The translations under genes and the position numbers were made by a program. Under the pieces are notes generated by a model. The model did no database searches. It worked only from the letters and a program-made list of their open reading frames with translations, and had not been told where the DNA came from. Shown here in pieces: positions 7,839-53,033 of a stretch of DNA of 64,000 bases (within the stretch, counting starts at the first letter, position 1; each line of letters opens with the position of its first letter). Source of the stretch: a virus. The stretch lies in IMG/VR virus record IMGVR_UViG_3300024262_003767; one strand, written 5' to 3'.

Positions 7839-8660
7839 TTAAGAAATGTTTTCAAGTTTTAATGCTCTGATTTGTTTTTTAGAAAAAATATTAGTTTTTG
7901 ACTTCTTTATTAAATGTGAAAATATTTTATTTTGTATTAATTTTTTCTTTACGGAAAAATCCGCATTTACTATTTTTTCTTCAAATTCAATTAAACATTC
8001 AGGCTCACGACCATCACCTAAATAAACTTTATCTCCTACTGTGTGAAACCAAAACCATTCTATTTTAATGTCATTTTCTTTAAACAATTTATCTACTTCT
8101 GAACTTAAATAATAATAAAAATATGTTAATAATTCAGTTAAAAATTCAGTTTCAGAAAATCCATCATTACTATTTAAATAATAATACCAAAAATTACTAG
8201 GTTCAACACCTAACTCAAGACAAAGATTATCAATTTTATCAATATTTTTGTTGGTTTTATTAAAAACATAGTCATTAAACAAACTTTTAAATGATTTAGT
8301 ATCTCCATTACCTTTATCACAATTACATTTTGAACACATTGTCTGATAATTGGTAGAAGTGTTTTTACCACCTTTAGATTTTGGTATGATGTGATCTTTC
8401 GTCATTAAAATTTCATCACCGTTTTCATTTACACCATACATATTGATGTGATATTTTTCAATTTCGGGTAAATGCTTCTCAATTGCTAAAAAAATTCCTT
8501 CAAGTCCACATTCAACACAGAATCTATTTTCTTGAAATAATTTGTATCGTTGTGAGGTTATCTTAACAGTAACCCCGTTAATTGTTCGGTATCTATTTGG
8601 TCCTACACTATCCTTTAGTTTTTTTAAATAACTTATATCTAATTTACTATGTCTTATCAT
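7839..8660 (-). CDS. HNH endonuclease
   Basis: HIIPKSKGGKNTSTNYQTMCSKCNCDKGNG HNH motif with Cys ligands. Confidence 0.75.
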   Translation of the reverse strand: MIRHSKLDISYLKKLKDSVGPNRYRTINGVTVKITSQRYKLFQENRFCVECGLEGIFLAIEKHLPEIEKYHINMYGVNENGDEILMTKDHIIPKSKGGKNTSTNYQTMCSKCNCDKGNGDTKSFKSLFNDYVFNKTNKNIDKIDNLCLELGVEPSNFWYYYLNSNDGFSETEFLTELLTYFYYYLSSEVDKLFKENDIKIEWFWFHTVGDKVYLGDGREPECLIEFEEKIVNADFSVKKKLIQNKIFSHLIKKSKTNIFSKKQIRALKLENIS

Positions 8661-12703: not shown

Positions 12704-13767
12704 AAAATTAATATATACAGTACAATGAAAAGATTGAAAAAGTTAAACGAATTATTTTTTGATAGAAGTGAATTAGATGATGGTAATGTTAGATTTTACC
12801 TATTAAATCCCGATACAAATAAAGGTTTTGCGTTTGATGTAGAACGTGAAGATATGAATACTTTAGAAGATATCCTGAAACGCAACAATGTAGTATATGA
12901 AATTGATGATGGTGGAAATGATTTACCGTTTTAAAAAATGAAATAAAAAATTAAATATATACATTTGGAAAATAAAATACAACACATGTTTAAAAATACC
13001 TCTGAAAGATTTAAAGATATGAATTTCGGGCAAAAAATAATTATCGGCATTTTAACAACCGTTGGTGCCGCAATAATTATAGGGTTATTTATTATGGCAA
13101 CAAAAGTATATTCTTTTGAAGTTGATATAACAGACATTAAAGGTGATATGAAAGAAAAAGCGGCAATAGAGTATGTTGACAAATCTATCGAAAATATAGA
13201 TATTAGTGTTGGTACAAATGGCGAAAAAATAAAAGCTATCAAAGAAGAAGATATCAAAGACATAAAGGAAGGTATCAAAGATTTAAATAATAAAATAGAT
13301 GAAAACCAAAAATTCATCCTTGAGTATATCAAAAACAAATAAAAATTTCCATAAATTATACATTTTTTAAACTTCACAATATTTTTTAATATATAATCAT
13401 CAAATTAAAAAATAATTTGTGATATGAAAAGAAAATATAGTGATTATTTGGACGCATCAGGAAATTGGCAATTATTAGTAAATGGTGACGAAGATAGTTG
13501 GTGGGATTATAAAGGTGATTGTATTGAAAGAATTTTAGAATTATTAAGTTCAGAAAGTGGTTTACAGGAATTTGATTATGAAGGTGACATTCTAGATTTA
13601 GAAGATCTTAAATATGAATTGGAAAGTCTTTCTGAAGAAGATTTTTATACTGTATTAGAAGAAATAAAAAGAGAGTGTGATTTTTCAGGTGATATTAAAA
13701 TGTTTAATATATCAGATGAAGATGAAATAGATTTCTTAAAAGAAGAAAAAGAGTATTACGATTTCGA

Positions 13768-14487
13768 TTAATCTTTATCCAACATAAATAAAGCCAAATC
13801 ATATTTTATTGGATCTTGGCTATCCATCTTTTTCAAATTATTAGTTAGTTCAATAACTGATTTCCAATCGTTTTGATTTCTGGTAAGTAATCCAAATTCT
13901 CTTGACATGTTTCCAACATGAACATCAAGAGGTATGTATAAATTGGACTTATCTATATTTTTCCATAATCCAAAATCTACATTATCATCTCTAACCATCC
14001 ATCTTAAAAACATATTTAATCTTTTTGCCGCTGAATTGTTTTCTACGTTGGAAAGGTGTTTTTCACTTCGTTGTTCATGTTCAAGAGAGAAAAAAATTTT
14101 CCAAAATCTAATTAAACTATTTTTTATATCATTCGTGAAAAATGTTTCCAATCCACTATAATTCAAATAAATATATCTTAGAGATTTCATATAATATATC
14201 ATATCAATATCCTTAATTGTTCTATGTTTAAATCCTTTAAGATTATTAAAATCTCCATATAAAATATAATTGTGAGGTTCATTATTCATTAATTCCATTA
14301 ATGAGTTTGACTTATTTATGATAATATCTCTCCTACCAAATGATATTATAGAAGTTAAAAATGCTGAGATTTCTATATCATAGAAACATTCAAATCTATG
14401 TGGAATTGATATTGGGTCATTTTCTATGAATAATTTATTATTATTAATTTTATAACTTTCTTCAAGTTGCTCTTTTATGTCTTTCAT
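13768..14487 (-). CDS. DUF2400/TIGR02757-like hypothetical protein
   Basis: NDPISIPHRFECFYDIEISAFLTSIISFGRRDII block reminiscent of that family. Confidence 0.3.
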   Translation of the reverse strand: MKDIKEQLEESYKINNNKLFIENDPISIPHRFECFYDIEISAFLTSIISFGRRDIIINKSNSLMELMNNEPHNYILYGDFNNLKGFKHRTIKDIDMIYYMKSLRYIYLNYSGLETFFTNDIKNSLIRFWKIFFSLEHEQRSEKHLSNVENNSAAKRLNMFLRWMVRDDNVDFGLWKNIDKSNLYIPLDVHVGNMSREFGLLTRNQNDWKSVIELTNNLKKMDSQDPIKYDLALFMLDKD

Positions 14488-27352: not shown

Positions 27353-28216
27353 TTAATTTAATTCACCTTCCCAAACAATTTTATATTCATATTTACCTGG
27401 TAGTAGTATAATTTCTCTTTGATTTGTATGGTAATATTGTGTTGGTAATTTCTGTACGTCAACTAGTACATCTTTAGGTTGTACTTCCATCATAATAACA
27501 AAAGGTGGTGATGATGGTTGTTCATCCACAAATCTTCTAGCCACTAATATATTTGTAGTCCAAGATGTCGACATATTGAAATCGGATATAACTTTTTCAC
27601 CAACTTTGTATGGTGGGGTTTTTTTTGAAAAATGTTTTATTTGAACTTCTTCAATACCTTTATAAATCTTTAAAGGTTTATCTGGTTTAAAAGGTTTTAA
27701 TTCGTCTATAATATCTTGTGTTAATTTTGATAATAACAAAGAGCCAGAACCTATATATGAATATAACCAATCATCAGTTTTTTCAGATAATTCAACATTT
27801 ATCCTTTCAGGTGTATGTTTATCATATTTAGTAAATCCTCCAATGTAACGAAAAGATATCACATCTCCATTTTTAATTCTTGCTAACCATTCACCTGTTA
27901 TTGAATGTTTATAAAAATAACCAGAATAATCATCAACATCAACTTCTTCATCTTCACTAAATCCAAAAAAATCTACAATTTGTTTATATAGAGGTTTTTT
28001 TGTTTTAATTTGATAGATATATTCACTATTTATATCAGATGCGTCTGCTCTATTTGTTAAATAGATTCTTTTTAAATGATTTAGATTACTAAAATCTATA
28101 TCTTCTAATTTTAATGGTTCATCAGAATATAAATATAAATTTCCATTATATGTTTTTTGATCGTAATCTACTTCATTATAATCTACAAGTTCAAATAATT
28201 TGAATTTAGTTATCAT
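27353..28216 (-). CDS. Hypothetical protein with a possible C-terminal ADP-ribosyltransferase-like domain
   Basis: FNMSTSWTT (STS) followed about 55 aa later by NQREIILLPG (Q-x-E); upstream IYKG in the position of the YRG Arg; overlaps the CCA-enzyme gene by 11 nt. Confidence 0.3.
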   Translation of the reverse strand: MITKFKLFELVDYNEVDYDQKTYNGNLYLYSDEPLKLEDIDFSNLNHLKRIYLTNRADASDINSEYIYQIKTKKPLYKQIVDFFGFSEDEEVDVDDYSGYFYKHSITGEWLARIKNGDVISFRYIGGFTKYDKHTPERINVELSEKTDDWLYSYIGSGSLLLSKLTQDIIDELKPFKPDKPLKIYKGIEEVQIKHFSKKTPPYKVGEKVISDFNMSTSWTTNILVARRFVDEQPSSPPFVIMMEVQPKDVLVDVQKLPTQYYHTNQREIILLPGKYEYKIVWEGELN

Positions 28217-29465
28217 TCATAAGATATTCATTTTTGAAACGCACAATCTCTCGTCTTTTCTTTTCTATTTCAATTTCAATTCCTTTGAAACCTTCAGCAG
28301 CTAAATCATTACCATTAACCACAAATCCATCATTACAATAATCAACAAATGGTTTATAGAATTCTTCACCCAAAAACTCATAAATTAAATCATCATCAAT
28401 ATGATATTGATTTTTCATTTTAGCCAAACCGTAAACATTTGAAACGTCAATGTTTTTAAATGATTTCCAATGTAAATCTAATTCCTTCTCAAGTTTGAGC
28501 AAAAATTCAATCTGGTTCACTAACTTGGAACTAAATTTCAATTCACTAATCATATATTTTCTCAATTTACGAATATCATTATCACGAAGTAAATGTGCAA
28601 ATAATATTGCGGAAATAGGTTTTGGTGTAAATCCATCGGGAGATATTTTCAATTTGGGAAACATTTGTTCCCACATATCATATTCAGTTAATAGTCTGAT
28701 ATAATTTTCTAATATTTTGTTTCCGCCTTTTTCTGCGTGTTCAATTACCTTATTCCATTCTTCATGTATTCTTTCTTGTGATACATCTTCTTTGGTACTT
28801 ATACCACGTAGTCTGTTATCACTTTTAATGGCTCTTGATGTCTCAGGTGATATGATACCACCTTTTCTACCTTGGGCTCTTGCAGCGAATCTAAATACTC
28901 TTAAAATTCTTAATCTATCTTCTTTAAATCTCTCAGCAGGATCACCAACAGCACGTATAACATTATTTTCAATATCTTTAACTCCACCAACCAAATCTAC
29001 AATTTCTTTTTTATTTATATCATAGAAAAGAGCATTGATAGTTAAATCTCTACGTTTAACATCATCTTCGATTGTAATATGGTTTCCAATTTCTACTTTA
29101 TCATCATCACCTTTTGTATCTCTACCTCCAGAAATATCTTTTCTAAAAGTTGCTAATTCGTGTCCGAGTGGTTCATCTTCAGTATAAATTCTAAGTACGC
29201 CAAAATTTTTACCTTGTTCATCAGAAACATTCCAACCTTTCAAAATTCTTTTACTTTCTTCTGGTAGAGCATTTGTGACTAAATCAAAATCATGTGGTAT
29301 CTTTTTTTGCAAAAAATCACGAACCGCTCCACCAACAACATAGATATCTTTACCAGCATTATTGAAGGCTCTTGATATTTCTTTAATGTCATAAGGAATA
29401 GGCATCTCAACAGAGATAGTATTTTCAGTTATAAATTCTAAATATTTTTTTAATTTTTCTACCAT
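28206..29465 (-). CDS. cca: tRNA nucleotidyltransferase (class II CCA-adding enzyme / polyA-polymerase head domain)
   Basis: VVGGAVRDFLQKKIPHDFDLV (GGxVRD...DxD) and RRDLTINALFYD motifs. Confidence 0.85.
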   Translation of the reverse strand: MVEKLKKYLEFITENTISVEMPIPYDIKEISRAFNNAGKDIYVVGGAVRDFLQKKIPHDFDLVTNALPEESKRILKGWNVSDEQGKNFGVLRIYTEDEPLGHELATFRKDISGGRDTKGDDDKVEIGNHITIEDDVKRRDLTINALFYDINKKEIVDLVGGVKDIENNVIRAVGDPAERFKEDRLRILRVFRFAARAQGRKGGIISPETSRAIKSDNRLRGISTKEDVSQERIHEEWNKVIEHAEKGGNKILENYIRLLTEYDMWEQMFPKLKISPDGFTPKPISAILFAHLLRDNDIRKLRKYMISELKFSSKLVNQIEFLLKLEKELDLHWKSFKNIDVSNVYGLAKMKNQYHIDDDLIYEFLGEEFYKPFVDYCNDGFVVNGNDLAAEGFKGIEIEIEKKRREIVRFKNEYLMNDN

Positions 29466-44050: not shown

Positions 44051-44690
44051 GTTATTTGATTATTTATTATTTACTTATATATATTAAATTGTAAACTTTA
44101 AACCGAAAAATTAATAAAAAGTAAAAATAAAGTCCAACAATGTCATTAACAACAACTGCGGTAAGTTCTAACTATGGCACATTAACCGTCTCAGGTACAC
44201 TTTCAGGTTACACAACAACATCATCGACAATAACAATATGTACAGGGTACACTTACGCAGGTTATGGGTATTCACCTTATCTAATGGGTGTTGATGTTGC
44301 TTATTCAAAATTATCAAATTTAGATTATGAAATAGAATTTTCATATGATGTTGACGATCATTTAAAAAATAGTGTAAGTTTTATAAATCATAAAAAAATC
44401 ACATTTAATTGTGATTTTGTGGAGAAAGATAGAATTCAACCTTATGAACTAATAATGAAAATGATAAGTGAAAAAATAAAATTCGATATCACAATTGATG
44501 TGAGTGATATTTTAACAGTTAAATATCTAGATGTTAGGTTTAAAGATATTGAAAATAATTTTTTATTTAATGGTAAGTGTGACTTTAGTACATTACAAGT
44601 TAAAATTAAATATAAGAGTATAATTTACGATAACCATAAATTACACATAACAGAAAAACGAAAAGATAAATTAAATAAAATAATGGAATT

Positions 44691-45284
44691 GTGATAGATA
44701 GAAGAAATGATATATACAAAATTCTCAATTTAAAAAATTATAAACTTGGTATAGAAGTGGGTACTTTTGAAGGTGATTTTTCAAGAACTATTTTAAGTAC
44801 TTGGAATGGTACATTATATTCTTTAGATATTTGGAAAACATTAGATAATGAAGAATATGTTGATACTAGTAATAATATCACACCATTTGACACATTAGGT
44901 AAGACTATTATTAATATTGAAGGATTTGAAGATAGGAGTGTCTTAATAAGAACCTCATCAGAAAATGGTTCAAAAATATTTCCTAATGAATATTTTGATT
45001 TTGTTTATATTGATGCAAATCATAAATATTCTTATGTTAAACAAGATATAGAATTGTGGTATCCAAAAATAAAACATGGTGGTATGATATCAGGTCACGA
45101 TTATATTAACGATTATAAACCTGATCAAACGGTTAATGGATATGATACTAATGTATGGATAGATAATAATTTTTGTGGATTGTTTGGAGTAAATCCTGCG
45201 GTTGATGAATTTGTTAAAAAATATAATCTAGATTTAAATATAACAAGTGAATATTTTGGTACATGGTACACATTTAAAAAATAA
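44691..45284 (+). CDS. Class I SAM-dependent methyltransferase (Methyltransf_24/TylF-like)
   Basis: LGIEVGTFEGDFS (motif I-like), FDFVYIDANH...HGGMISGHDY. Confidence 0.55.
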   Translation: MIDRRNDIYKILNLKNYKLGIEVGTFEGDFSRTILSTWNGTLYSLDIWKTLDNEEYVDTSNNITPFDTLGKTIINIEGFEDRSVLIRTSSENGSKIFPNEYFDFVYIDANHKYSYVKQDIELWYPKIKHGGMISGHDYINDYKPDQTVNGYDTNVWIDNNFCGLFGVNPAVDEFVKKYNLDLNITSEYFGTWYTFKK

Positions 45285-45491
45285 TTAAATTATGAAAACG
45301 TTAAAGAAAAACAATGAAATTAAAAGAGTAAAAGATTCTTCACCATCAGACGAGGCACAAATTCAAAGTTTATTAAACTCTGGATGGAAATATTGTCCGA
45401 AAAGTGAATGGAAAGCAACAAGACCTGTAAAGGAAAAAGTTGACAAGAAAAAAGTTGACAAGAAAGAGAATAAAAAAAGAGGTATAGATTC

Positions 45492-46370
45492 GTGAGTTTA
45501 AAATTGAAAAAAATTGTAAAATCAACACATGATAATACAATTAAATACATTTATTACACCAACGACAATTTAATTATAGAATTTTCTTACATAGATAAAA
45601 ATGATGGTAAAAATATTATATGTGCACCATCACAAACAATGTGTAATATTGGTTGTAAATTTTGTCACACCACAGATCATATTGGAAAAATCAAAACTAG
45701 AAATTTAACGGAATATGAAATATCTGATGGTGTTGAATATATATATAATGATTTGAATTTATCAAAAAATCCAAAAACATTATTGATATCATATATGGGT
45801 TGTGGTGAACCAATTCTCAATGTAGATGGTGTAGTTAACTCTATGCGTATCATAAACGAGATGTATGATGTATATACAAGGTTTGCAATTGCAACATCAA
45901 TACCAGAATATAAATATATTGAATTTTTTAATTTTACTAATAAAATTGATGAATTAAAATTACCAGTAAAATTACACTTATCGTTACACTATACTATGGA
46001 TCAAATTAGATCGCAATGGATGCCAAAATCTATGAATATTATTGAATCTTTAGCTGCTGTTGATTTTTTCAAAAAGAAAACTAATAATTCAGTTGAAATA
46101 CATTACGCTTTACTTGATGGTGTTAATGATACTGAACAAGATGCAATACTTTTAACTAATTTAATAAAAGATAGAGACTTTAATGTAAAATTTTTATTTT
46201 ATAATAAAAGAGAGATATTGGATATTGAACCATCAGACAAACAAAAATTGAGAACATTTAAAAGATATTTCAATAAATATAATATTGAACATGAGTATTA
46301 TATACCACCAGGATTAGATGTTGGGGCATCATGTGGACAATTCTTAATGGAAGAATATACCGAAAAATAA
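45492..46370 (+). CDS. RlmN/Cfr-family radical SAM RNA methyltransferase lacking the N-terminal domain
   Basis: CAPSQTMCNIGCKFCHT vs RlmN CVSSQVGCALECKFCST; MGCGEPILN vs MGMGEPLLN; HLSLHYT; ALLDGVNDTEQDA; GLDVGASCGQF vs GDDIDAACGQL. Confidence 0.8.
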   Translation: MSLKLKKIVKSTHDNTIKYIYYTNDNLIIEFSYIDKNDGKNIICAPSQTMCNIGCKFCHTTDHIGKIKTRNLTEYEISDGVEYIYNDLNLSKNPKTLLISYMGCGEPILNVDGVVNSMRIINEMYDVYTRFAIATSIPEYKYIEFFNFTNKIDELKLPVKLHLSLHYTMDQIRSQWMPKSMNIIESLAAVDFFKKKTNNSVEIHYALLDGVNDTEQDAILLTNLIKDRDFNVKFLFYNKREILDIEPSDKQKLRTFKRYFNKYNIEHEYYIPPGLDVGASCGQFLMEEYTEK

Positions 46371-46380
46371 AATAAACACA

Positions 46381-46914
46381 ATGAAAGTAATAGTAATTAA
46401 TGGTACAGCACAAACTGGAAAGGATAAGTTTGTCTCTTTTTTTAATGAAGTCGCAACCGAACTAAGAGTAAAGAATTATTCATCAATTGATAGAGTTAAA
46501 CAAATAGCCGAAATATGTTTTGGTTGGGACACTAAAAAGAATGATAAATCTAGAAGATTTTTATCAGAAATTAAAAGAATTTGGACTGATTTTAATGATG
46601 GTCCGTTTGAGGTTATTAAAAATCAAATAGATGTTGATATAATATATTCAAAAAATAATAATAAAGATGTAAGTAAAAATATCTATTTTATACATATACG
46701 AGAACCAGAAGAAATAAAAAAAGTTAAAAAATATTACGATATTTTCTGTGTTACACTTTTAATAAAAAAAGATGTAGATTTTATTCCTGATAATGATTCA
46801 GATAAAAATGTTGAAAATTTTGATTATGATTATATTGTAGATAATAATGGTTCAGAAGAAGAATTAAAAATACGAGCCGAAGAATTTCTAACACACATAA
46901 AAAAAACCTTGTAA
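46381..46914 (+). CDS. Deoxynucleoside monophosphate kinase-like (T4 gp1-like)
   Basis: MKVIVINGTAQTGKDKFVSFF resembles T4 dNMP kinase MKLIFLSGVKRSGKDTTADF. Confidence 0.5.
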   Translation: MKVIVINGTAQTGKDKFVSFFNEVATELRVKNYSSIDRVKQIAEICFGWDTKKNDKSRRFLSEIKRIWTDFNDGPFEVIKNQIDVDIIYSKNNNKDVSKNIYFIHIREPEEIKKVKKYYDIFCVTLLIKKDVDFIPDNDSDKNVENFDYDYIVDNNGSEEELKIRAEEFLTHIKKTL

Positions 46915-46935
46915 GAAATTACAAGGTTTTTTTAT
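46900..46935. terminator. Bidirectional intrinsic terminator between the dNMP-kinase-like gene(+) and clpC(-)
   Basis: AAAAAACCTTGTAA-gaaa-TTACAAGGTTTTTTT, overlapping the stop codon. Confidence 0.7.
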
Positions 46936-46955: not shown

Positions 46956-49472
46956 TTAGGCTTCTAAAAGTGGAGTTTCATCTTTTGGTGGTAATTCTTT
47001 ACTATTCAAATTAACAATAGTAATCTCACCATCTTTACTTCTAAGTGAAACTTTATCACCAATTTTAATTTCACCATTGAGAATAGCATCTGTTAGAGTA
47101 TCTTCAATGTGTCGTTGAATTGCTCTTTTCAATGGTCTTGCACCATATTCAGCATCCCATCCTTCTTCAAATAAGAAGTCTTTAAGTGACTTTGTGATAT
47201 TTACAACATAACCAATATCTTTAAGTCTATCGAGAGTTGTTTTAATTTCAAGGTCAATAATTCTGAAAATGTTGTCTTTTGAAAGAGCGTTGAACATTAT
47301 AAGTTCATCAACTCTATTAAGAAATTCTGGTGCAAATTTCTTTTTCAATTCTTTATCAATAACAGCGTTCTTCTTATCTTGAATGTTTTTGTTGGTGGCA
47401 TTTGTTTGAAATCCCATACCTGTACCAAAATCTTTAAGTTGTCTTGAACCTGTATTCGATGTCATTATGATAATTGCGTTTTTAAAATTAACTCTTCTAC
47501 CATAACTATCAGTAAGAATTCCATCATCAAGAACTTGTAGAAGTATATTAAATACGTCTGGATGCGCTTTTTCCATTTCATCAAGAAGAACAATTGAATA
47601 TGGTTTTCTTCTGATGGCTTCAGTTAATTCACCACCATCATCATAACCAACATATCCTGGAGGCGCTCCAATCAATTTTGAAACTGAATGTTTTTCCATA
47701 TATTCAGACATATCAATTCTAATGAGGTTTTCTTCTGAACCAAAGAGTTCTTTTGCTAGAACCTTTGCTAAGTAAGTTTTACCGACACCTGTAGCACCTA
47801 AGAACATAAATGTTCCGACAGGTTTTTTAGGATCTTTGATACCAATTCTACTACGTTTGATTGAACGAACAATTTTATCAACAGCATCATCTTGTCCAAT
47901 AACAATATTTTTCATTTTAGTTCCAAGATTTCTCAATTTGTTTGATTCATCATCATCAACAGCATCAAGTGGGATTTTGGTCATCATTGAAACAACTTCA
48001 GCAATATCTTCTTTTCCAACGATTTCACGATTTTCGTCCAATTTTTCGTTCCATTCCTCTTTCAATTTTTTCAATTGTTCTGTAAGGTTTCTTTCTTTAT
48101 CTCTCCAAGAAGCAGCTTTTTCAAATTTCTGTTCGTCAACACATTCAGTTTTCTTTTTCTCGGCTTCTGAAATTTTACTTTCAAGAATAGAAATAGCTTT
48201 AGGTTGATTTGAATTTGAATCTACATGAACTTTGGCACCAGCTTCATCCAAAGCGTCAATTGCTTTATCTGGCATAAATCTATCATTCATATATTTATCA
48301 GTCAATTTTACACAAGCTTCAATTGCTTCATCTGTGTACACGACTTTGTGATAATCCTCATATCTAACTTTGAGTTGTTTAAGGATTTCAATAGTTTCTT
48401 CAATGGTAGTAGGTTCTACCACAACTTTTTGAAATCTTCTTTCTAATGCACCATCTTTTTCAATATGTTTTCTATATTCTTCGAGAGTAGTTGCACCAAT
48501 ACATTGGAATGTTCCTCTTGCTAATGCTGGTTTTAACATATTAGATGCATCAAGTGAACCTTGTGCGCTACCAGCACCAATAATTGTATGAATTTCATCA
48601 ATAAAAAGTATAATGTTTGATGTTTCTTCAATTTCTTTGATAATTCCTCTTAAACGAGATTCAAATTCGCCACGATATTTTGTTCCTGCAACAAGGGCAC
48701 CCATATTAAGGGTGAAAATTCTTTTATCTTTAATGTTGTTTGGCACTTTACCATCAACAATTCGTTGTGCTAAACCTTCAACAATTGCAGATTTGCCAAC
48801 TCCAGGCTCACCTATAAGAATAGGATTATTTTTCTTTCTACGTGAAAGAATTTGACTTATTCTTTTAATCTCAATTTTTCTACCAACAACTGGATCGAGA
48901 GAACCTTCTTTTGCTTTTTTGGTAATATCTTCACCAAATTGTTCAATAAGTTTAGGTTTCTTATTTTTATTTGATGCTGTTGTATCACTATGATGCATTT
49001 CTGGATCATCCCAATCTGCACTATTACTTATTCCAGTAACTTTTTCGTGTAATTTTTTAATTATCTCACCTTCATCAATTTTTGAAAACATATCATTTAA
49101 AATATTATTTTTAGTATTTAAGAGTGAAAGTAATACTACATCAGTATCAACATATTTGACATCCATTTCATCAATTATTCCAACACAATTTTCAAGTATG
49201 TCCGTAACTTCTTGTGATAATTGTACTTTATCTTTTCTCTCTGCCAATTGAATATGCTCCATTTGGTTTCTCATTACCAAAGCATCTTGAATAGTTTTTT
49301 TGATTGTTGGAATACGAATATCAATTTCTTGAAGAACTTGATAAGCACGATAATTTTCATCCTCAATTAGAGCCAAAAACAAGTGTTCTGGTTCAATTTC
49401 AGATGATTTATATTGCAACGCAATCGTCTTACTATTCTTAATCACATTATCTACGTCTTTGTTAAAGTTCAT
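46956..49472 (-). CDS. clpC: ClpC-type AAA+ unfoldase (Clp_N, two AAA modules, UVR-like M-domain)
   Basis: Clp_N repeats ([16 protein letters not shown]); Walker [19 protein letters not shown] and GATGVGKT; UVR motif [11 protein letters not shown]; sensor-2 [10 protein letters not shown]. Confidence 0.9.
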
Positions 49473-49777: not shown

Positions 49778-50080
49778 TTAATCTTTCTCAATCGTGAGTG
49801 TTAATCCTTGTTCTTCAAGTGCGGATTTAAAAGGTTTTAATTTATCTTTTGAACCAGTTTTTAAGATACTCGCACCTTTCATATGAACTGTCCAAGCTGT
49901 GTTTTCAGCTTTTTCTGGACTAAAACTCATAATTGATATCAGACATAAAATTACATGATCAAAAGAATTGACTTCATCATTCCATAAAATCAATTTATAG
50001 ACTTTATCATCCGATGGTTCAATACCCGCTTTACTGAGTATTTCTTCTAATGTTTTTGTTATTTCTTTTGTGTCGCTCAT
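49778..50080 (-). CDS. clpS: ClpS adaptor protein
   Basis: YKLILWNDEVNSFDHVILCLISIM...AENTAWTVHMKGASIL matches ClpS (YKVILLNDDYTPMEFV...ATQLML.VH..G). Confidence 0.85.
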   Translation of the reverse strand: MSDTKEITKTLEEILSKAGIEPSDDKVYKLILWNDEVNSFDHVILCLISIMSFSPEKAENTAWTVHMKGASILKTGSKDKLKPFKSALEEQGLTLTIEKD

Positions 50081-51375
50081 ATTCCTAATTCCTCTTTATA
50101 TAGTTTAACAGTATTAAAGTTTCCAGTATATTTTCCTTCACTATCAGACAACTTTACACAATCTCTCCAAACTTTCATTCCTTCAGGTAAGGCTTCAGAC
50201 ATCTTAATTACCATATTTAAAGGTTTTGCCTTTTTTAAAGTTTCCATAAAATAACCACCATTTGGATTTGGTATCGATTCCCAATTAAATTGGTTATGAT
50301 AATCTTCATCATAGATACCATTTTGTGAAACCAAAACAACATCGTTTGATAGCCAAGTACCTATACCATAGGAAGATAATATTTTATTTCTCACACAATT
50401 TTCAATTGTTTTAATTTTTTCTATACTATTTATAGAGTCAGAAAATACAATTGTTTTTGGAATCATACCATTAGGCATTTTAATACCTTTATTTATGTAA
50501 TGTTTGATAGTTTTTTCTGCGAATTCAACAGGTTCACCAGAATCTTGACGAACACCGTCAAATAATTTTGAATAAAATAAATCAAAACCTTCAAAGAAAA
50601 TATCTGTTGTATATGTATCAGAAAGTGCAATTCCTAATGCTCCTTTATAAGCATCTACCCAACGACCCATTCCTACACGATTAGCCATCATCACACCGTA
50701 TTTAGCAGCGTGAAACATAAACCATTCGTGTGCCTGAGTTCCAATTGCTTTAATACCATATTTACGAGCAAACATCACATTGGATGTACCAACGATTGTT
50801 TTTGGTGCAACTTTCAAAAATTCTTCAATAACTCTACCTTGGATAAATTTTGAAAATCTTCTGCGGGTTCCAAATTCAGATAATGAAATTCCAAGTTCAG
50901 ATAATTGTTTAAATTTTTCATCCCAAATTTCCATTGACTTTTCTAAGTCAACTTCTTCACCTGAGAAAAGGAAGAATAATTCTGATATTAAAGCCATTAA
51001 TTGAACTTCCCAAAATATAGTTTTGTGCCAAAAACCTTCAATTTCTATTTCTAATACACCATTTTTTTGAGTAACTTTAACTTCATTAGGATCATATTGA
51101 TAACTCCTAAGATACATATAATAGGAAATATCAAAGAATGGAAGTTTACTTTTCAAATGTTCTTCAATTTCTTTGGTAAATTTTAAATTTTTGAAATGAG
51201 CAATCTGTTCTTTTAACTCGGTAGCAAAACCTTTTGGAAATTTACGGGTTTTATCTCTGAGTATGAACTTATACTTAACCTTAGCGTTAGGATAGTGTTT
51301 TAGTATGGCAAATTGCATGAAATACTTATAGGCGTCCTGATCATCAAATTCGGTAATTATTGGTTTAAATCTCAT
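50077..51375 (-). CDS. pncB: Nicotinate phosphoribosyltransferase (PncB/NAPRT)
   Basis: Colinear with E. coli PncB: DDQDAYKYFMQFAILKHY, LPFFDISYYMYLRSYQYDPNEVKVTQKNGVLEIEIEGFWHKTIFWEVQLMALISE, EFGTRRRFS, VGTSNVMFARKYGIKAIGTQAHEWF. Initially mistaken for NAMPT. Confidence 0.9.
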   Translation of the reverse strand: MRFKPIITEFDDQDAYKYFMQFAILKHYPNAKVKYKFILRDKTRKFPKGFATELKEQIAHFKNLKFTKEIEEHLKSKLPFFDISYYMYLRSYQYDPNEVKVTQKNGVLEIEIEGFWHKTIFWEVQLMALISELFFLFSGEEVDLEKSMEIWDEKFKQLSELGISLSEFGTRRRFSKFIQGRVIEEFLKVAPKTIVGTSNVMFARKYGIKAIGTQAHEWFMFHAAKYGVMMANRVGMGRWVDAYKGALGIALSDTYTTDIFFEGFDLFYSKLFDGVRQDSGEPVEFAEKTIKHYINKGIKMPNGMIPKTIVFSDSINSIEKIKTIENCVRNKILSSYGIGTWLSNDVVLVSQNGIYDEDYHNQFNWESIPNPNGGYFMETLKKAKPLNMVIKMSEALPEGMKVWRDCVKLSDSEGKYTGNFNTVKLYKEELGI

Positions 51376-51376
51376 A

Positions 51377-52078
51377 TTATAAAAATTTTCCTATTGTTTC
51401 TGATTCAATTTCAATATCTTTTACTGAATTAATAACAAGTATATTATAATCGATTACTAACATTTCAATATATTTATCTAATTCTTCTTCTGTTCCTAAC
51501 CCTTTTGTTGCGGCAAGATTTAAGATAACTTGAAATCCAGCATTGGACAAATCCTTTAAAGTTTCACCTACACAGTAATTAAGTGCTAATCCACCAACAA
51601 TAATTGTTGTTATATTGTGATAATTATAAAATTCAATCAACCCAGTCGAAATTTTACCTTCTTGATCGTGATAAACACTTGTGTAAGGGTGTAGGTGTGG
51701 ATCGACTCCCTTATTTACAATAAAGTTAAAATCTTCAATTTTACCAAGTTCATCAAGAATTTCCGAACCAAATGTTCCTGATTCACAATGCAAATTCCAA
51801 AACATATCAACATTTTTGTGTCCAACTATAGGTGTGAATTGAGGATTTTCTTCAGTTGCTACCCATAACGCATTTTTTGAGTGCATATCTCTTGATATGG
51901 TTTTAACAATTCCTATTAAATTTTGTTTTGCTAATTCTTTACCAATTAGGTGTCCATCAGGTACAGGTAGTTCATTAGGACAGAGTGGAGTAAATCCCTT
52001 TTGAGGGTCAACGTTGTGACTTGCTGTTCTTTCGCTAATCACTCTAATCTTATTCGTATTTTCAAAACTTATATTCAT
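51377..52078 (-). CDS. pncA: Nicotinamidase (PncA, isochorismatase family)
   Basis: VDPQKGF (Asp), NLHCESG, KGVDP (Lys), IIVGGLALNYCV (Cys), in PncA order. Confidence 0.8.
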   Translation of the reverse strand: MNISFENTNKIRVISERTASHNVDPQKGFTPLCPNELPVPDGHLIGKELAKQNLIGIVKTISRDMHSKNALWVATEENPQFTPIVGHKNVDMFWNLHCESGTFGSEILDELGKIEDFNFIVNKGVDPHLHPYTSVYHDQEGKISTGLIEFYNYHNITTIIVGGLALNYCVGETLKDLSNAGFQVILNLAATKGLGTEEELDKYIEMLVIDYNILVINSVKDIEIESETIGKFL

Positions 52079-53033
52079 AATATTTTATTTATTTTTATGT
52101 TACAAAAGTAATACTTTTTTTAATAATAAAAAAATTGTATTGTTAAAGAATAACAATACAATTTTTATTCGTGAATTCTTTTAAAGTTTTCAATATATTT
52201 AGACATATTTACGGAGCCTATAATATTTTGAGTGTGAATTATACATATTGGTAATTTTTCATTATTATCAATACAGTAATCACACAACCATTTGACACAC
52301 TCCATACCTGTTTTTTCGGTGTATTTTGAGTAATCAACATCATCTTGATTTAATAAATATTGATAATGTTCATCTGCTAAATCGTGATCAAAACTAATCA
52401 TTTGAGGTAAACCATTTAACTCAATACATTTAATAAATTGATCGTAAGACCTAACAATAACCCAATCGAGATTTATATAGTCCATATTTTGTGTATAGTA
52501 ATATGCGTCCTCATAATTTCCATGAGGGGAATATGGAACTCTTTCATCATCTAAAAACAAATTGTACATAATTTTACCTTTTAAGTGTGCTAAATTAATA
52601 AAAAAAATTGGAATAAAAAATTACAGTTTCTGTAACATAGTTATTATTTCGGTTAATGTTTCATCGTAATTGAGAATTCTTTTGTGTAAACTCTCATATC
52701 TTTCGTGGAAAAAGACATCACGATTTTTTACTGTAATATATGTGTCGTCTTTTTTGAAATTTATCTTAAATTGGTAGTTTCTATTATCATACTCAATATT
52801 ATGAATAACTTCATTATATTGAAAATCTCTCCACGTTCTACTAAATCTAGTTTTAATAACAAATTTGCATGGTTCATTTTTAAAAACCTTATTTAGATTT
52901 TCCAGTTCAATACGTATATGTCGTCCTCTTTGGTTATACATATTATATTCATCTATTTTTGTTATCATAATCACTATATATAAAAAAAACCTCCCAAAAA
53001 ATTGAGAGGTTTTTTAAGATTAAACATTAAAGT

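Follow-up and report, generated by a model that had tools for sequence, protein, structure and literature searches.

A short RlmN/Cfr-type radical SAM protein of a large phage belongs to a distinct sister subfamily and may methylate a free deoxynucleotide

What would a large virus do with a radical S-adenosylmethionine (SAM) enzyme that resembles an RNA methylase without its N-terminal domain? The question is raised by a gene at positions 45492 to 46370 in a stretch of viral DNA of 64,000 nucleotides (nt) from the IMG/VR record IMGVR_UViG_3300024262_003767 (hereafter the window, which designates the whole stretch analysed). To our knowledge, the class-A radical SAM methylases described so far all methylate adenines of RNA, RlmN being a housekeeping enzyme and Cfr a determinant of multidrug resistance. 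A first-pass annotation, made from the sequence alone, described the gene as an N-terminally truncated member of the RlmN/Cfr family, whose product could modify A2503 of 23S rRNA or A37 of tRNA during infection.

The open reading frame (ORF) is intact, with a GTG start and a TAA stop read directly from the sequence, and it contains the three motifs on which this annotation was based (CNIGCKFC, GEPILN and GLDVGASCGQ). Since the GTG start overlaps the TGA stop of an upstream ORF of 67 amino acids (aa) in the tetranucleotide GTGA, the arrangement suggests that the two genes are translationally coupled. The features of the gene are as follows.

45492..46370, plus strand: ORF of the RlmN/Cfr-type radical SAM methyltransferase, 292 aa, N-terminal domain absent, member of the subfamily with the eight-residue signature described below
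45477..45482, plus strand: Shine-Dalgarno-like sequence AAGAGG, 9 nt 5' of the GTG start, read from the sequence
45501..45623, plus strand: beta-sheet extension, residues 4-44, ending at C44 (AlphaFold2 secondary structure, conservation and the domain definition of PMC13001441)
45621..45623, plus strand: codon of C44, the putative resolving Cys, equivalent to RlmN C118 and Cfr C105 (alignment)
45642..45665, plus strand: CNIGCKFC, the CxxxCxxC motif with the predicted 4Fe-4S ligands C51, C55 and C58
45795..45821, plus strand: MGCGEPILN, the SAM-binding MGxGEP motif common to RlmN and Cfr
46311..46340, plus strand: GLDVGASCGQ, C-terminal motif with the putative methyl carrier C281 (alignment)
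46332-46334, plus strand: codon of C281, equivalent to RlmN C355 and Cfr C338

The best profile match of the protein is the NCBIfam RlmN model TIGR00048 (E = 2.1e-40, 138.8 bits), with an alignment that spans only profile positions 74-346 and does not reach the equivalog cut-off of 290 bits. The Cfr models (TIGR04432 and NF000424) score lower (E of 1e-25 to 6e-27, 87.6-94.8 bits), below their cut-offs of 530-550 bits, and Pfam returned a Radical_SAM match below threshold and nothing else. Sequence matches in the PDB are exclusively RlmN and Cfr. An AlphaFold2 model of the ORF product, built from 40 family members, has a mean predicted local distance difference test (pLDDT) score of 96.2 and a predicted template modelling (pTM) score of 0.92. 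Foldseek searches with this model retrieved RlmN structures first, with template modelling (TM) scores of 0.81-0.83 (6FZ6 and 5HR6 at 0.83), followed by Cfr (0.68) and other radical SAM enzymes (0.59 or less). The predicted fold consists of a partial TIM barrel, a beta' extension and a C-terminal strand, and is nearest to those of RlmN and Cfr. C44, located seven residues before the cluster motif, aligns with E. coli RlmN (Ec) C118, C281 with C355, and E30 with E105, and the CNIGCKFC motif (residues 51-58) is invariant across the family. There are 34 positions that both the long and the short forms conserve, and at 31 of them, which make up the catalytic and SAM core, the residue is the same; E105, C118, C125/129/132, the MGxGEP motif and C355 are among these. 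The assignment to the superfamily proposed by the first-pass annotation therefore stands, with the catalytic Cys pair present and RlmN as best profile: the sequence clearly identifies the ORF as an RlmN/Cfr-type (class-A) radical SAM methyltransferase, and the intact catalytic apparatus predicts a functional protein.

The absence of the N-terminal domain was also correctly recognized, the missing part being smaller than the roughly 90 aa initially given: 43 residues precede the first catalytic Cys in the window protein, compared to 117 in E. coli RlmN and 104 in Cfr, which makes a deficit of about 61-74 residues. This deficit corresponds to the HhH2 domain plus hinge, whereas the three-strand beta' extension is kept. 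In the AlphaFold2 model, the region before C44 is predicted to contain beta strands only, without a helical HhH2 domain; residues 4-44 form four predicted strands (the beta'1-3 extension and the strand bearing C44) that include the invariant residues K18 and E30. In the cryo-EM structure of Cfr with rRNA, the HhH2 domain, termed crucial for rRNA binding, anchors the enzyme at the H90/H91/H92 junction, the counterpart of the tRNA acceptor stem and D-arm (PMC13001441). Probes for the N-terminal domains of RlmN and Cfr found no match anywhere in the 64-kb window. The 67-aa ORF located upstream was considered as a detached N-terminal domain and rejected, as it shows no similarity to the N-termini of RlmN or Cfr and no Pfam, NCBIfam or PHROG match.

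The short form is not specific to the window. A search of 5.8 billion proteins returned more than 120 proteins with 57-80% identity, nearly all of 285-300 aa, and an exhaustive search yielded 104 clusters (at 50% identity) with E < 1e-30, almost all of 280-310 aa, which align from their own residues 3-10; full-length RlmN and Cfr surface only below an E value of about 1e-28. Fifteen residues are invariant across more than 100 short-form clusters. Because more than 100 clusters share the same design of about 290-300 aa, the short form is an architecture of the whole family and not a one-off truncation of RlmN, as the first description implied. The resolving Cys is kept in 92% of short-form representatives and replaced by Val in eight, each representing a cluster at 50% identity (P0133, P0172, P0174, P0187, P0203, P0217, P0247 and P0259), which keep the other four Cys. 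Substitution of C118 in RlmN traps the covalent adduct.

If the short proteins are not truncated copies of RlmN, are they RlmN or Cfr at all? In a neighbor-joining (NJ) tree of 128 sequences (266 core columns, 200 bootstraps), one split, recovered in 162 of 200 bootstraps, separates all short forms from the long forms, which are E. coli RlmN, Cfr, Cfr(C), Cfr(D) and a further 12 sequences. The window protein is thus placed opposite both the RlmN and the Cfr clades, with neither of which it groups, and its scores are far below the equivalog cut-offs of both, so that an identity as RlmN or Cfr proper is not retained. Only three of the 34 conserved positions differ between the two groups, and these substitutions (Ec A231 to H162, N307 to K233 and R344 to Y270) all fall at positions where Cfr contacts A2503 or U2504. 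From conservation and from alignment to the published Cfr-RNA contacts (PMC13001441), on which our mapping of the pocket rests, we defined a signature of eight residues, L98, S100, K160, H162, E202, K233, Y270 and P273. The eight matching residues of Cfr all contact A2503 or its 3' neighbour U2504 (PMC13001441). Members of the subfamily are further defined by 40-60 residues before the first catalytic Cys.

45783..46310, plus strand: span of the eight signature codons (conservation and alignment to Cfr contacts)
45783-45785, plus strand: L98, matching Cfr S151
45789-45791, plus strand: S100, matching Cfr S153
45969-45971, plus strand: K160, matching Cfr N208
45975-45977, plus strand: H162, matching Cfr T210
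46095-46097, plus strand: E202, matching Cfr Y252
46188-46190, plus strand: K233, matching Cfr N288
46299-46310, plus strand: YIPP, with Y270 (matching Cfr R327) and P273 (matching Cfr F330)

The complete signature is present in the window protein (8/8, with 43 residues before C44), in Tunturi_5 gp170, the only member of this clade from a cultured phage found here, and in 51 of 54 viral, 60 of 61 Bacilli, 11 of 13 Candidate Phyla Radiation (CPR) and two of three archaeal homologues. By contrast, RlmN, the Cfr variants, the long-form representatives and other short phage lineages have none or one of the eight residues. Basic residues involved in RNA binding have also disappeared (Ec R206, R274 and the stretch RKTR at 344-347, replaced by YIPP), and a Glu appears at position 202. 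Three residues invariant in RlmN and Cfr, Ec R206, N307 and R344, are replaced by T129, K233 and Y270, and these replacements are conserved throughout the clade. In sequence comparisons, the signature acts as a binary marker of a distinct sister subfamily with a predicted remodelled substrate pocket. The net charge and pI of the core were discarded as indicators of RNA binding, since the averages of -1.6 for short forms and +4.75 for long forms do not discriminate: the cores of E. coli RlmN and Cfr are themselves acidic.

RlmN (E. coli YfgB; 3RFA, 5HR7), which makes m2A2503 in 23S rRNA and m2A37 in tRNA, is the best profile and fold match of the window protein. The two share the CxxxCxxC and MGxGEP motifs, the equivalents of E105, C118 and C355, the beta' extension and, presumably, the methyl-Cys/5'-deoxyadenosyl radical chemistry. 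They differ in the HhH2 domain, in a core identity of about 30%, in the replacement of N307, R344, R206, A231 and RKTR, and in their genomic partners, which for the short protein and its relatives are enzymes acting on deoxynucleoside monophosphates (dNMPs) and not RNA genes. The equivalog score, the HhH2 domain and the R206/N307/R344 contacts that characterize RlmN proper are all lacking. Cfr (9P0P; cryo-EM, PMC13001441), an m8A2503 methyltransferase conferring resistance to phenicols, lincosamides, oxazolidinones, pleuromutilins and streptogramin A (PhLOPSA), belongs to the same superfamily and has the same catalytic residues. It is a weaker match than RlmN (95 bits, TM 0.68), possesses the N-terminal domain missing here, and shares only one of the eight signature residues, S153 (S100). 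The window protein neither reaches the curated Cfr score nor groups with Cfr in the tree, and nothing in its sequence suggests an activity in antibiotic resistance.

Short RlmN-like proteins also exist in phages outside this subfamily. Those of Phabio (gp444, L141), D6 (annotated 'RlmN', L142), BUCTxx99 (L143) and Vibrio phage 249E41-1 (L144) have about 300 aa, lack HhH2 and belong to the same fold family. Unlike the window protein, they carry none of the eight signature residues and form at least two further lineages, and those of Phabio and D6 have a Tyr instead of the resolving Cys and keep the Asn of RlmN at the K233 position. The label 'Fe-S-cluster redox domain-containing' (PHROG 27142) is the one attached to other short phage RlmN-like proteins. 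In three of these four phages (Phabio, D6 and BUCTxx99), the gene adjoins tRNA clusters, with RtcB also nearby in D6. From their sequences and contexts, these four proteins probably have a function different from that of the window protein, and are better candidates for tRNA-modifying enzymes of phages.

Members of the signature subfamily are found in both viruses and cells. We recovered 46 loci from IMG/VR, on contigs of up to 375 kb, the long ones being phage-like with a terminase and many ORFs without family match. A scan of GTDB with the clade motif yielded 80 loci, essentially all encoding short forms. The carriers are metagenome-assembled genomes (MAGs) of Patescibacteria/CPR (43-47% identity), many MAGs of reduced-genome gut Bacilli, 'Tenericutes' and Erysipelotrichaceae (27-32% identity) and, among archaea, Woesearchaeota (DPANN). 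The cellular loci are clearly chromosomal, with genes for the Der GTPase, aminoacyl-tRNA synthetases, RpoB, SecA and S15/PNPase nearby, and one of them is located on a closed chromosome of 1.5 Mb. A LysR-type regulator, a kind of upstream gene typical of metabolic genes, is encoded directly upstream in about half of the cellular loci (L061-L139). This family is the sole strongly conserved cellular neighbour (22 of 150 proteins within two genes on either side), and its ligand might reveal the pathway.

Several members of the subfamily are fused to enzymes of deoxynucleotide metabolism, and all fusion proteins carry the complete signature. In P0188, encoded by a phage-like contig, a deoxycytidine monophosphate (dCMP) deaminase precedes the radical SAM enzyme. 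The order is reversed in P0223 and in Bacilli proteins from four loci (L073, L075, L098 and L108), with which the proteins of L076, L077 and L109 were grouped by length alone (491-495 aa). In L116, the enzyme is followed by a dCMP deaminase and then by a deoxyuridine triphosphatase (dUTPase), and in P0241 by a Nuc_deoxyrib_tr (nucleoside 2-deoxyribosyltransferase-like) domain. A fused deaminase of the TadA type, which would have formed a module for the tRNA anticodon loop (I34 plus m2A37), was considered and rejected: the domain scores 113 bits with ComEB versus 28 with TadA, and its best PDB match is human DCTD (2W4L, E = 5e-52), without any TadA hit. Judging from these sequence associations, it is the signature, and not the loss of HhH2, that tracks the link with nucleotide metabolism.

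A similar company is observed in some phage loci: in L020 and L038 a dCMP deaminase gene is the direct neighbour of the radical SAM gene, and in L054 and L015 such a gene is at most 2 kb away, a dUTPase gene is found 167 nt downstream in the L016 group, and NrdG abuts the gene in L019. Probes for the thymidylate synthases ThyA and ThyX matched only separate genes, ThyA at 0.9 kb downstream of the radical SAM gene in L032/L043 and ThyX at 3.7 kb downstream of it in L052. Within two genes on either side, dCMP deaminase is the top Pfam family (4 of 150 proteins, from 39 non-redundant loci), compared to at most 1 of 150 among control genes at least seven positions away. Since these neighbourhood statistics are modest, it is the independent fusions that carry most of our argument. 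In phages, the genes around members of the family show little conservation of order. A neighbour of 181 aa (cluster 7), taken from its appearance for a ThyX, has no ThyX match in PDB or PHROGs and was discarded. The closest fused relatives of the window protein, P0056, P0066, P0073 and P0117 (505 aa, 61-63% identical to it), bear an acidic C-terminal extension of about 210 aa, which has no Pfam, NCBIfam or PHROG match and does not correspond to the gene downstream of the radical SAM gene in the window.

Three phage contigs (L047, L051 and L053) encode two RlmN-like proteins within about 5 kb, one with the complete signature and the other with none or one of its residues, which suggests two different functions. 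An array of 19 tRNA genes is located about 6 kb from the RlmN-like genes in L053. Elsewhere, L052 encodes at positions 8429-8501 a tRNA with the anticodon CTA (amber suppressor, labelled 'Pyl' by ARAGORN), a hint of TAG recoding, and L016 encodes a transfer-messenger RNA (tmRNA) adjoining a tRNA-Met (13762-14116).

In the window itself, the radical SAM gene is part of a plus-strand block of five genes.

44140..44694, plus strand: first ORF of the block, 184 aa, sharing 4 nt with the gene that follows; no Pfam, NCBIfam or PHROG match
44691..45284, plus strand: class I SAM-dependent methyltransferase (Methyltransf_24; Pfam PF13578, E = 8e-16)
45292..45495, plus strand: upstream lysine-rich ORF of 67 aa; no Pfam, NCBIfam or PHROG match
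46381..46914, plus strand: P-loop protein of a phage dNMP kinase family, 10 nt after the stop of the radical SAM gene (PHROG 139, E = 1.5e-11)
46900..46933, no strand assigned: bidirectional terminator-like hairpin with a 15-bp stem and A7/T7 flanks

The product of 44691..45284 also matches PHROG 2675, 'DNA methyltransferase' (E = 4e-18). Neither the 67-aa ORF nor the dNMP kinase has BLAST-detectable counterparts in other loci of the family.

What could be the substrate of such an enzyme? As members of the subfamily recur in fusion with, or next to, enzymes that produce deoxyuridine monophosphate (dUMP) or handle dNMPs, a free pyrimidine deoxynucleotide appears the likeliest one, and we give roughly even weight to the proposal that the enzyme methylates such a nucleotide rather than rRNA or tRNA. 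A more specific version of this proposal, which we put forward tentatively, is the conversion of dUMP into deoxythymidine monophosphate (dTMP). The subfamily, possibly derived from an RlmN-like RNA methylase, might then represent a third, evolutionarily unrelated thymidylate synthase, of the radical SAM type and using SAM in place of methylene-tetrahydrofolate. This is the most parsimonious choice of reaction because both fusion partners, dCMP deaminase and dUTPase, produce dUMP and because dTMP is the sole essential methylated deoxynucleotide of cellular genomes. By analogy with RlmN chemistry, a first SAM would methylate C281, and a second SAM would be cleaved to a 5'-deoxyadenosyl radical that strips the S-methyl group of a hydrogen. 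This would leave a methylene radical, which would add to an sp2 carbon of the base, and C44 would resolve the covalent adduct. A SAM-dependent, folate-independent supply of dTMP could thereby serve the replication of a phage genome with 27% GC. The analogy with ThyA and ThyX is one of function: they catalyse the reaction proposed here and have the same typical genomic company (genes for dCMP deaminase, dUTPase, dNMP kinase and ribonucleotide reductase), without any sequence or fold relationship to the window protein, and they depend on methylene-tetrahydrofolate where the latter would use SAM and a radical mechanism. In the literature that we found, neither an RlmN-like enzyme directed at nucleotides nor a thymidylate synthase of the radical SAM type is described, and the subfamily itself is likewise undescribed.

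Several observations weigh against this proposal. We know of no class-A radical SAM methylase that acts on a mononucleotide. The choice between C5 and C6 of uracil is not predictable from sequence, and alpha-thio carbon radicals are nucleophilic, so that C5 is not obviously favoured. The enrichment in the neighbourhoods is modest, most phage loci having no neighbour related to nucleotide metabolism, and the dNMP kinase of the window was identified by a single PHROG match, with no Pfam or NCBIfam hit. The presence of ThyA or ThyX near the gene in two phage lineages indicates that the enzyme is not always a replacement for them. There are also links with translation and tRNA: a few loci encode IF3 and PTH2 near the gene, six have a Thg1-like gene 1-12 kb away, a CCA-adding enzyme is encoded in the window, and other short RlmN-like lineages adjoin tRNA clusters.

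These links lead back to the RNA substrates of the first-pass annotation, in which the superfamily was right and the targets A2503 and A37 have become doubtful, given that the residues holding the target nucleotide in RlmN and Cfr (Ec N307, R344 and R206) are replaced and that the genomic ties are to dUMP-producing enzymes and not to RNA genes. To make m2A or m8A in 23S rRNA (A2503) or in host or phage tRNAs (A37), the enzyme would have to recognize an RNA loop through nothing more than the core and the beta' extension, unless a partner protein stood in for HhH2. The nearest characterized relatives all methylate RNA adenines, and three elements with a part in RNA and nucleotide binding by Cfr (the beta' extension, K18 and E30) are conserved. 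The loss of HhH2 does not in itself exclude an RNA substrate, as other short RlmN-like proteins are encoded within tRNA clusters; these tRNA-adjacent proteins lack the signature entirely, however, which places them in other lineages. For the subfamily, tRNA genes were found within 10 kb in eight of the 41 viral loci scanned and were never adjacent, and the CCA-adding enzyme of the window and the IF3, PTH2 and Thg1-like genes of relatives fit an RNA substrate, whereas the 64-kb window contains no tRNA gene and no HhH2 domain encoded near the gene. Several basic RNA contacts have been lost together with the three invariant residues, an RNA enzyme would have no reason to be fused to dCMP deaminase and dUTPase, and the phages with two copies keep one gene of each type. 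We thus consider RNA methylation by the window protein unlikely. The suggestion that the phage picked up a host rlmN of which a decaying or inactive, truncated copy without function is left has in its favour a length shorter than that of RlmN and scores below the equivalog cut-offs; it is very improbable and effectively refuted by the conservation pattern, with an intact ORF preceded by a ribosome-binding site, all catalytic residues kept, a very confident AlphaFold2 model, more than 100 diverged clusters of the same length with 15 invariant residues, and a family conserved across phages and cellular lineages.

The link with deoxynucleotide metabolism would be equally compatible with DNA hypermodification, in which the enzyme would methylate a base carbon of a dNMP or deoxynucleoside triphosphate (dNTP) other than dUMP (C2 or C8 of dAMP, C5 or C6 of dCMP), or DNA itself, the unusual methylated base allowing the phage genome to evade restriction. 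The class I methyltransferase encoded in the same block, with its match to a PHROG 'DNA methyltransferase' family, is consistent with this scenario, as is the retention of the full RlmN chemistry including E30, which would fit an adenine-type substrate, and a product other than dTMP would more readily account for the ThyA or ThyX genes found alongside. There is also a precedent in phages: M6 gp53, the only radical SAM enzyme in the literature found here with a demonstrated role in installing a DNA modification, acts on a DNA base derivative in thymidine hypermodification (PMC8989533), although it is a spore-photoproduct-lyase-like isomerase acting on polymeric DNA and not an RlmN-like methyltransferase. 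By contrast, enzymes with the complete signature are chromosomal and in housekeeping contexts in many CPR, Bacilli and archaea, where an exotic base throughout the genome is unlikely, the fusion partners in cellular genomes specifically generate dUMP, and no glycosylase, kinase or transferase gene of the hypermodification type was seen adjoining the gene. In our opinion, this explanation is also rather improbable.

The window as a whole, with about 27% GC and dense coding, looks like a segment of a large phage genome, with genes for an SbcC-like nuclease and a virion structural protein; it has no close DNA relative among deposited phages. The hairpin at 46900-46933 closes both the five-gene block and a convergent ClpB-like gene. 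Three terminator-like sites were found in the window, compared to 0.4 expected, whereas a promoter scan gave 33 matches for 29.5 expected, which is not above chance. Other genes of the window include the following.

28206..29465, minus strand: CCA-adding tRNA nucleotidyltransferase (PHROG 2244, E = 4e-52), present despite the lack of tRNA genes in the window
46956..49472, minus strand: ClpB/ClpC-type double-AAA+ chaperone of 838 aa, convergent with the radical SAM block (domains Clp_N, AAA, AAA_lid_9, UVR, AAA_2 and ClpB_D2-small)
50077..52078, minus strand: two genes for NAD salvage, encoding a nicotinate phosphoribosyltransferase (432 aa) and, after it, a nicotinamidase-like protein of the isochorismatase family (233 aa)
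52165..52569, minus strand: protein of 134 aa with the Pfam domain cREC_REC (cyclic-phosphate processing receiver, E = 4e-21), unusual in a phage

Automatic names such as '23S rRNA (adenine2503-C2)-methyltransferase', 'Fe-S-cluster redox domain-containing' or Cfr-like resistance gene are probably misleading for members of this subfamily. If the proposed activity on a free deoxynucleotide is correct, it would extend class-A radical SAM chemistry to nucleotide metabolism. Should the enzyme make a methylated deoxynucleotide other than dTMP, a new modification of DNA bases would be indicated. With dTMP as the product, folate-poor anaerobes (CPR, DPANN and reduced gut Bacilli) and their large phages would be able to make thymidylate without the folate cycle, which would bear on their susceptibility to antifolates and on how the synthesis of DNA precursors evolved out of RNA-modifying enzymes.

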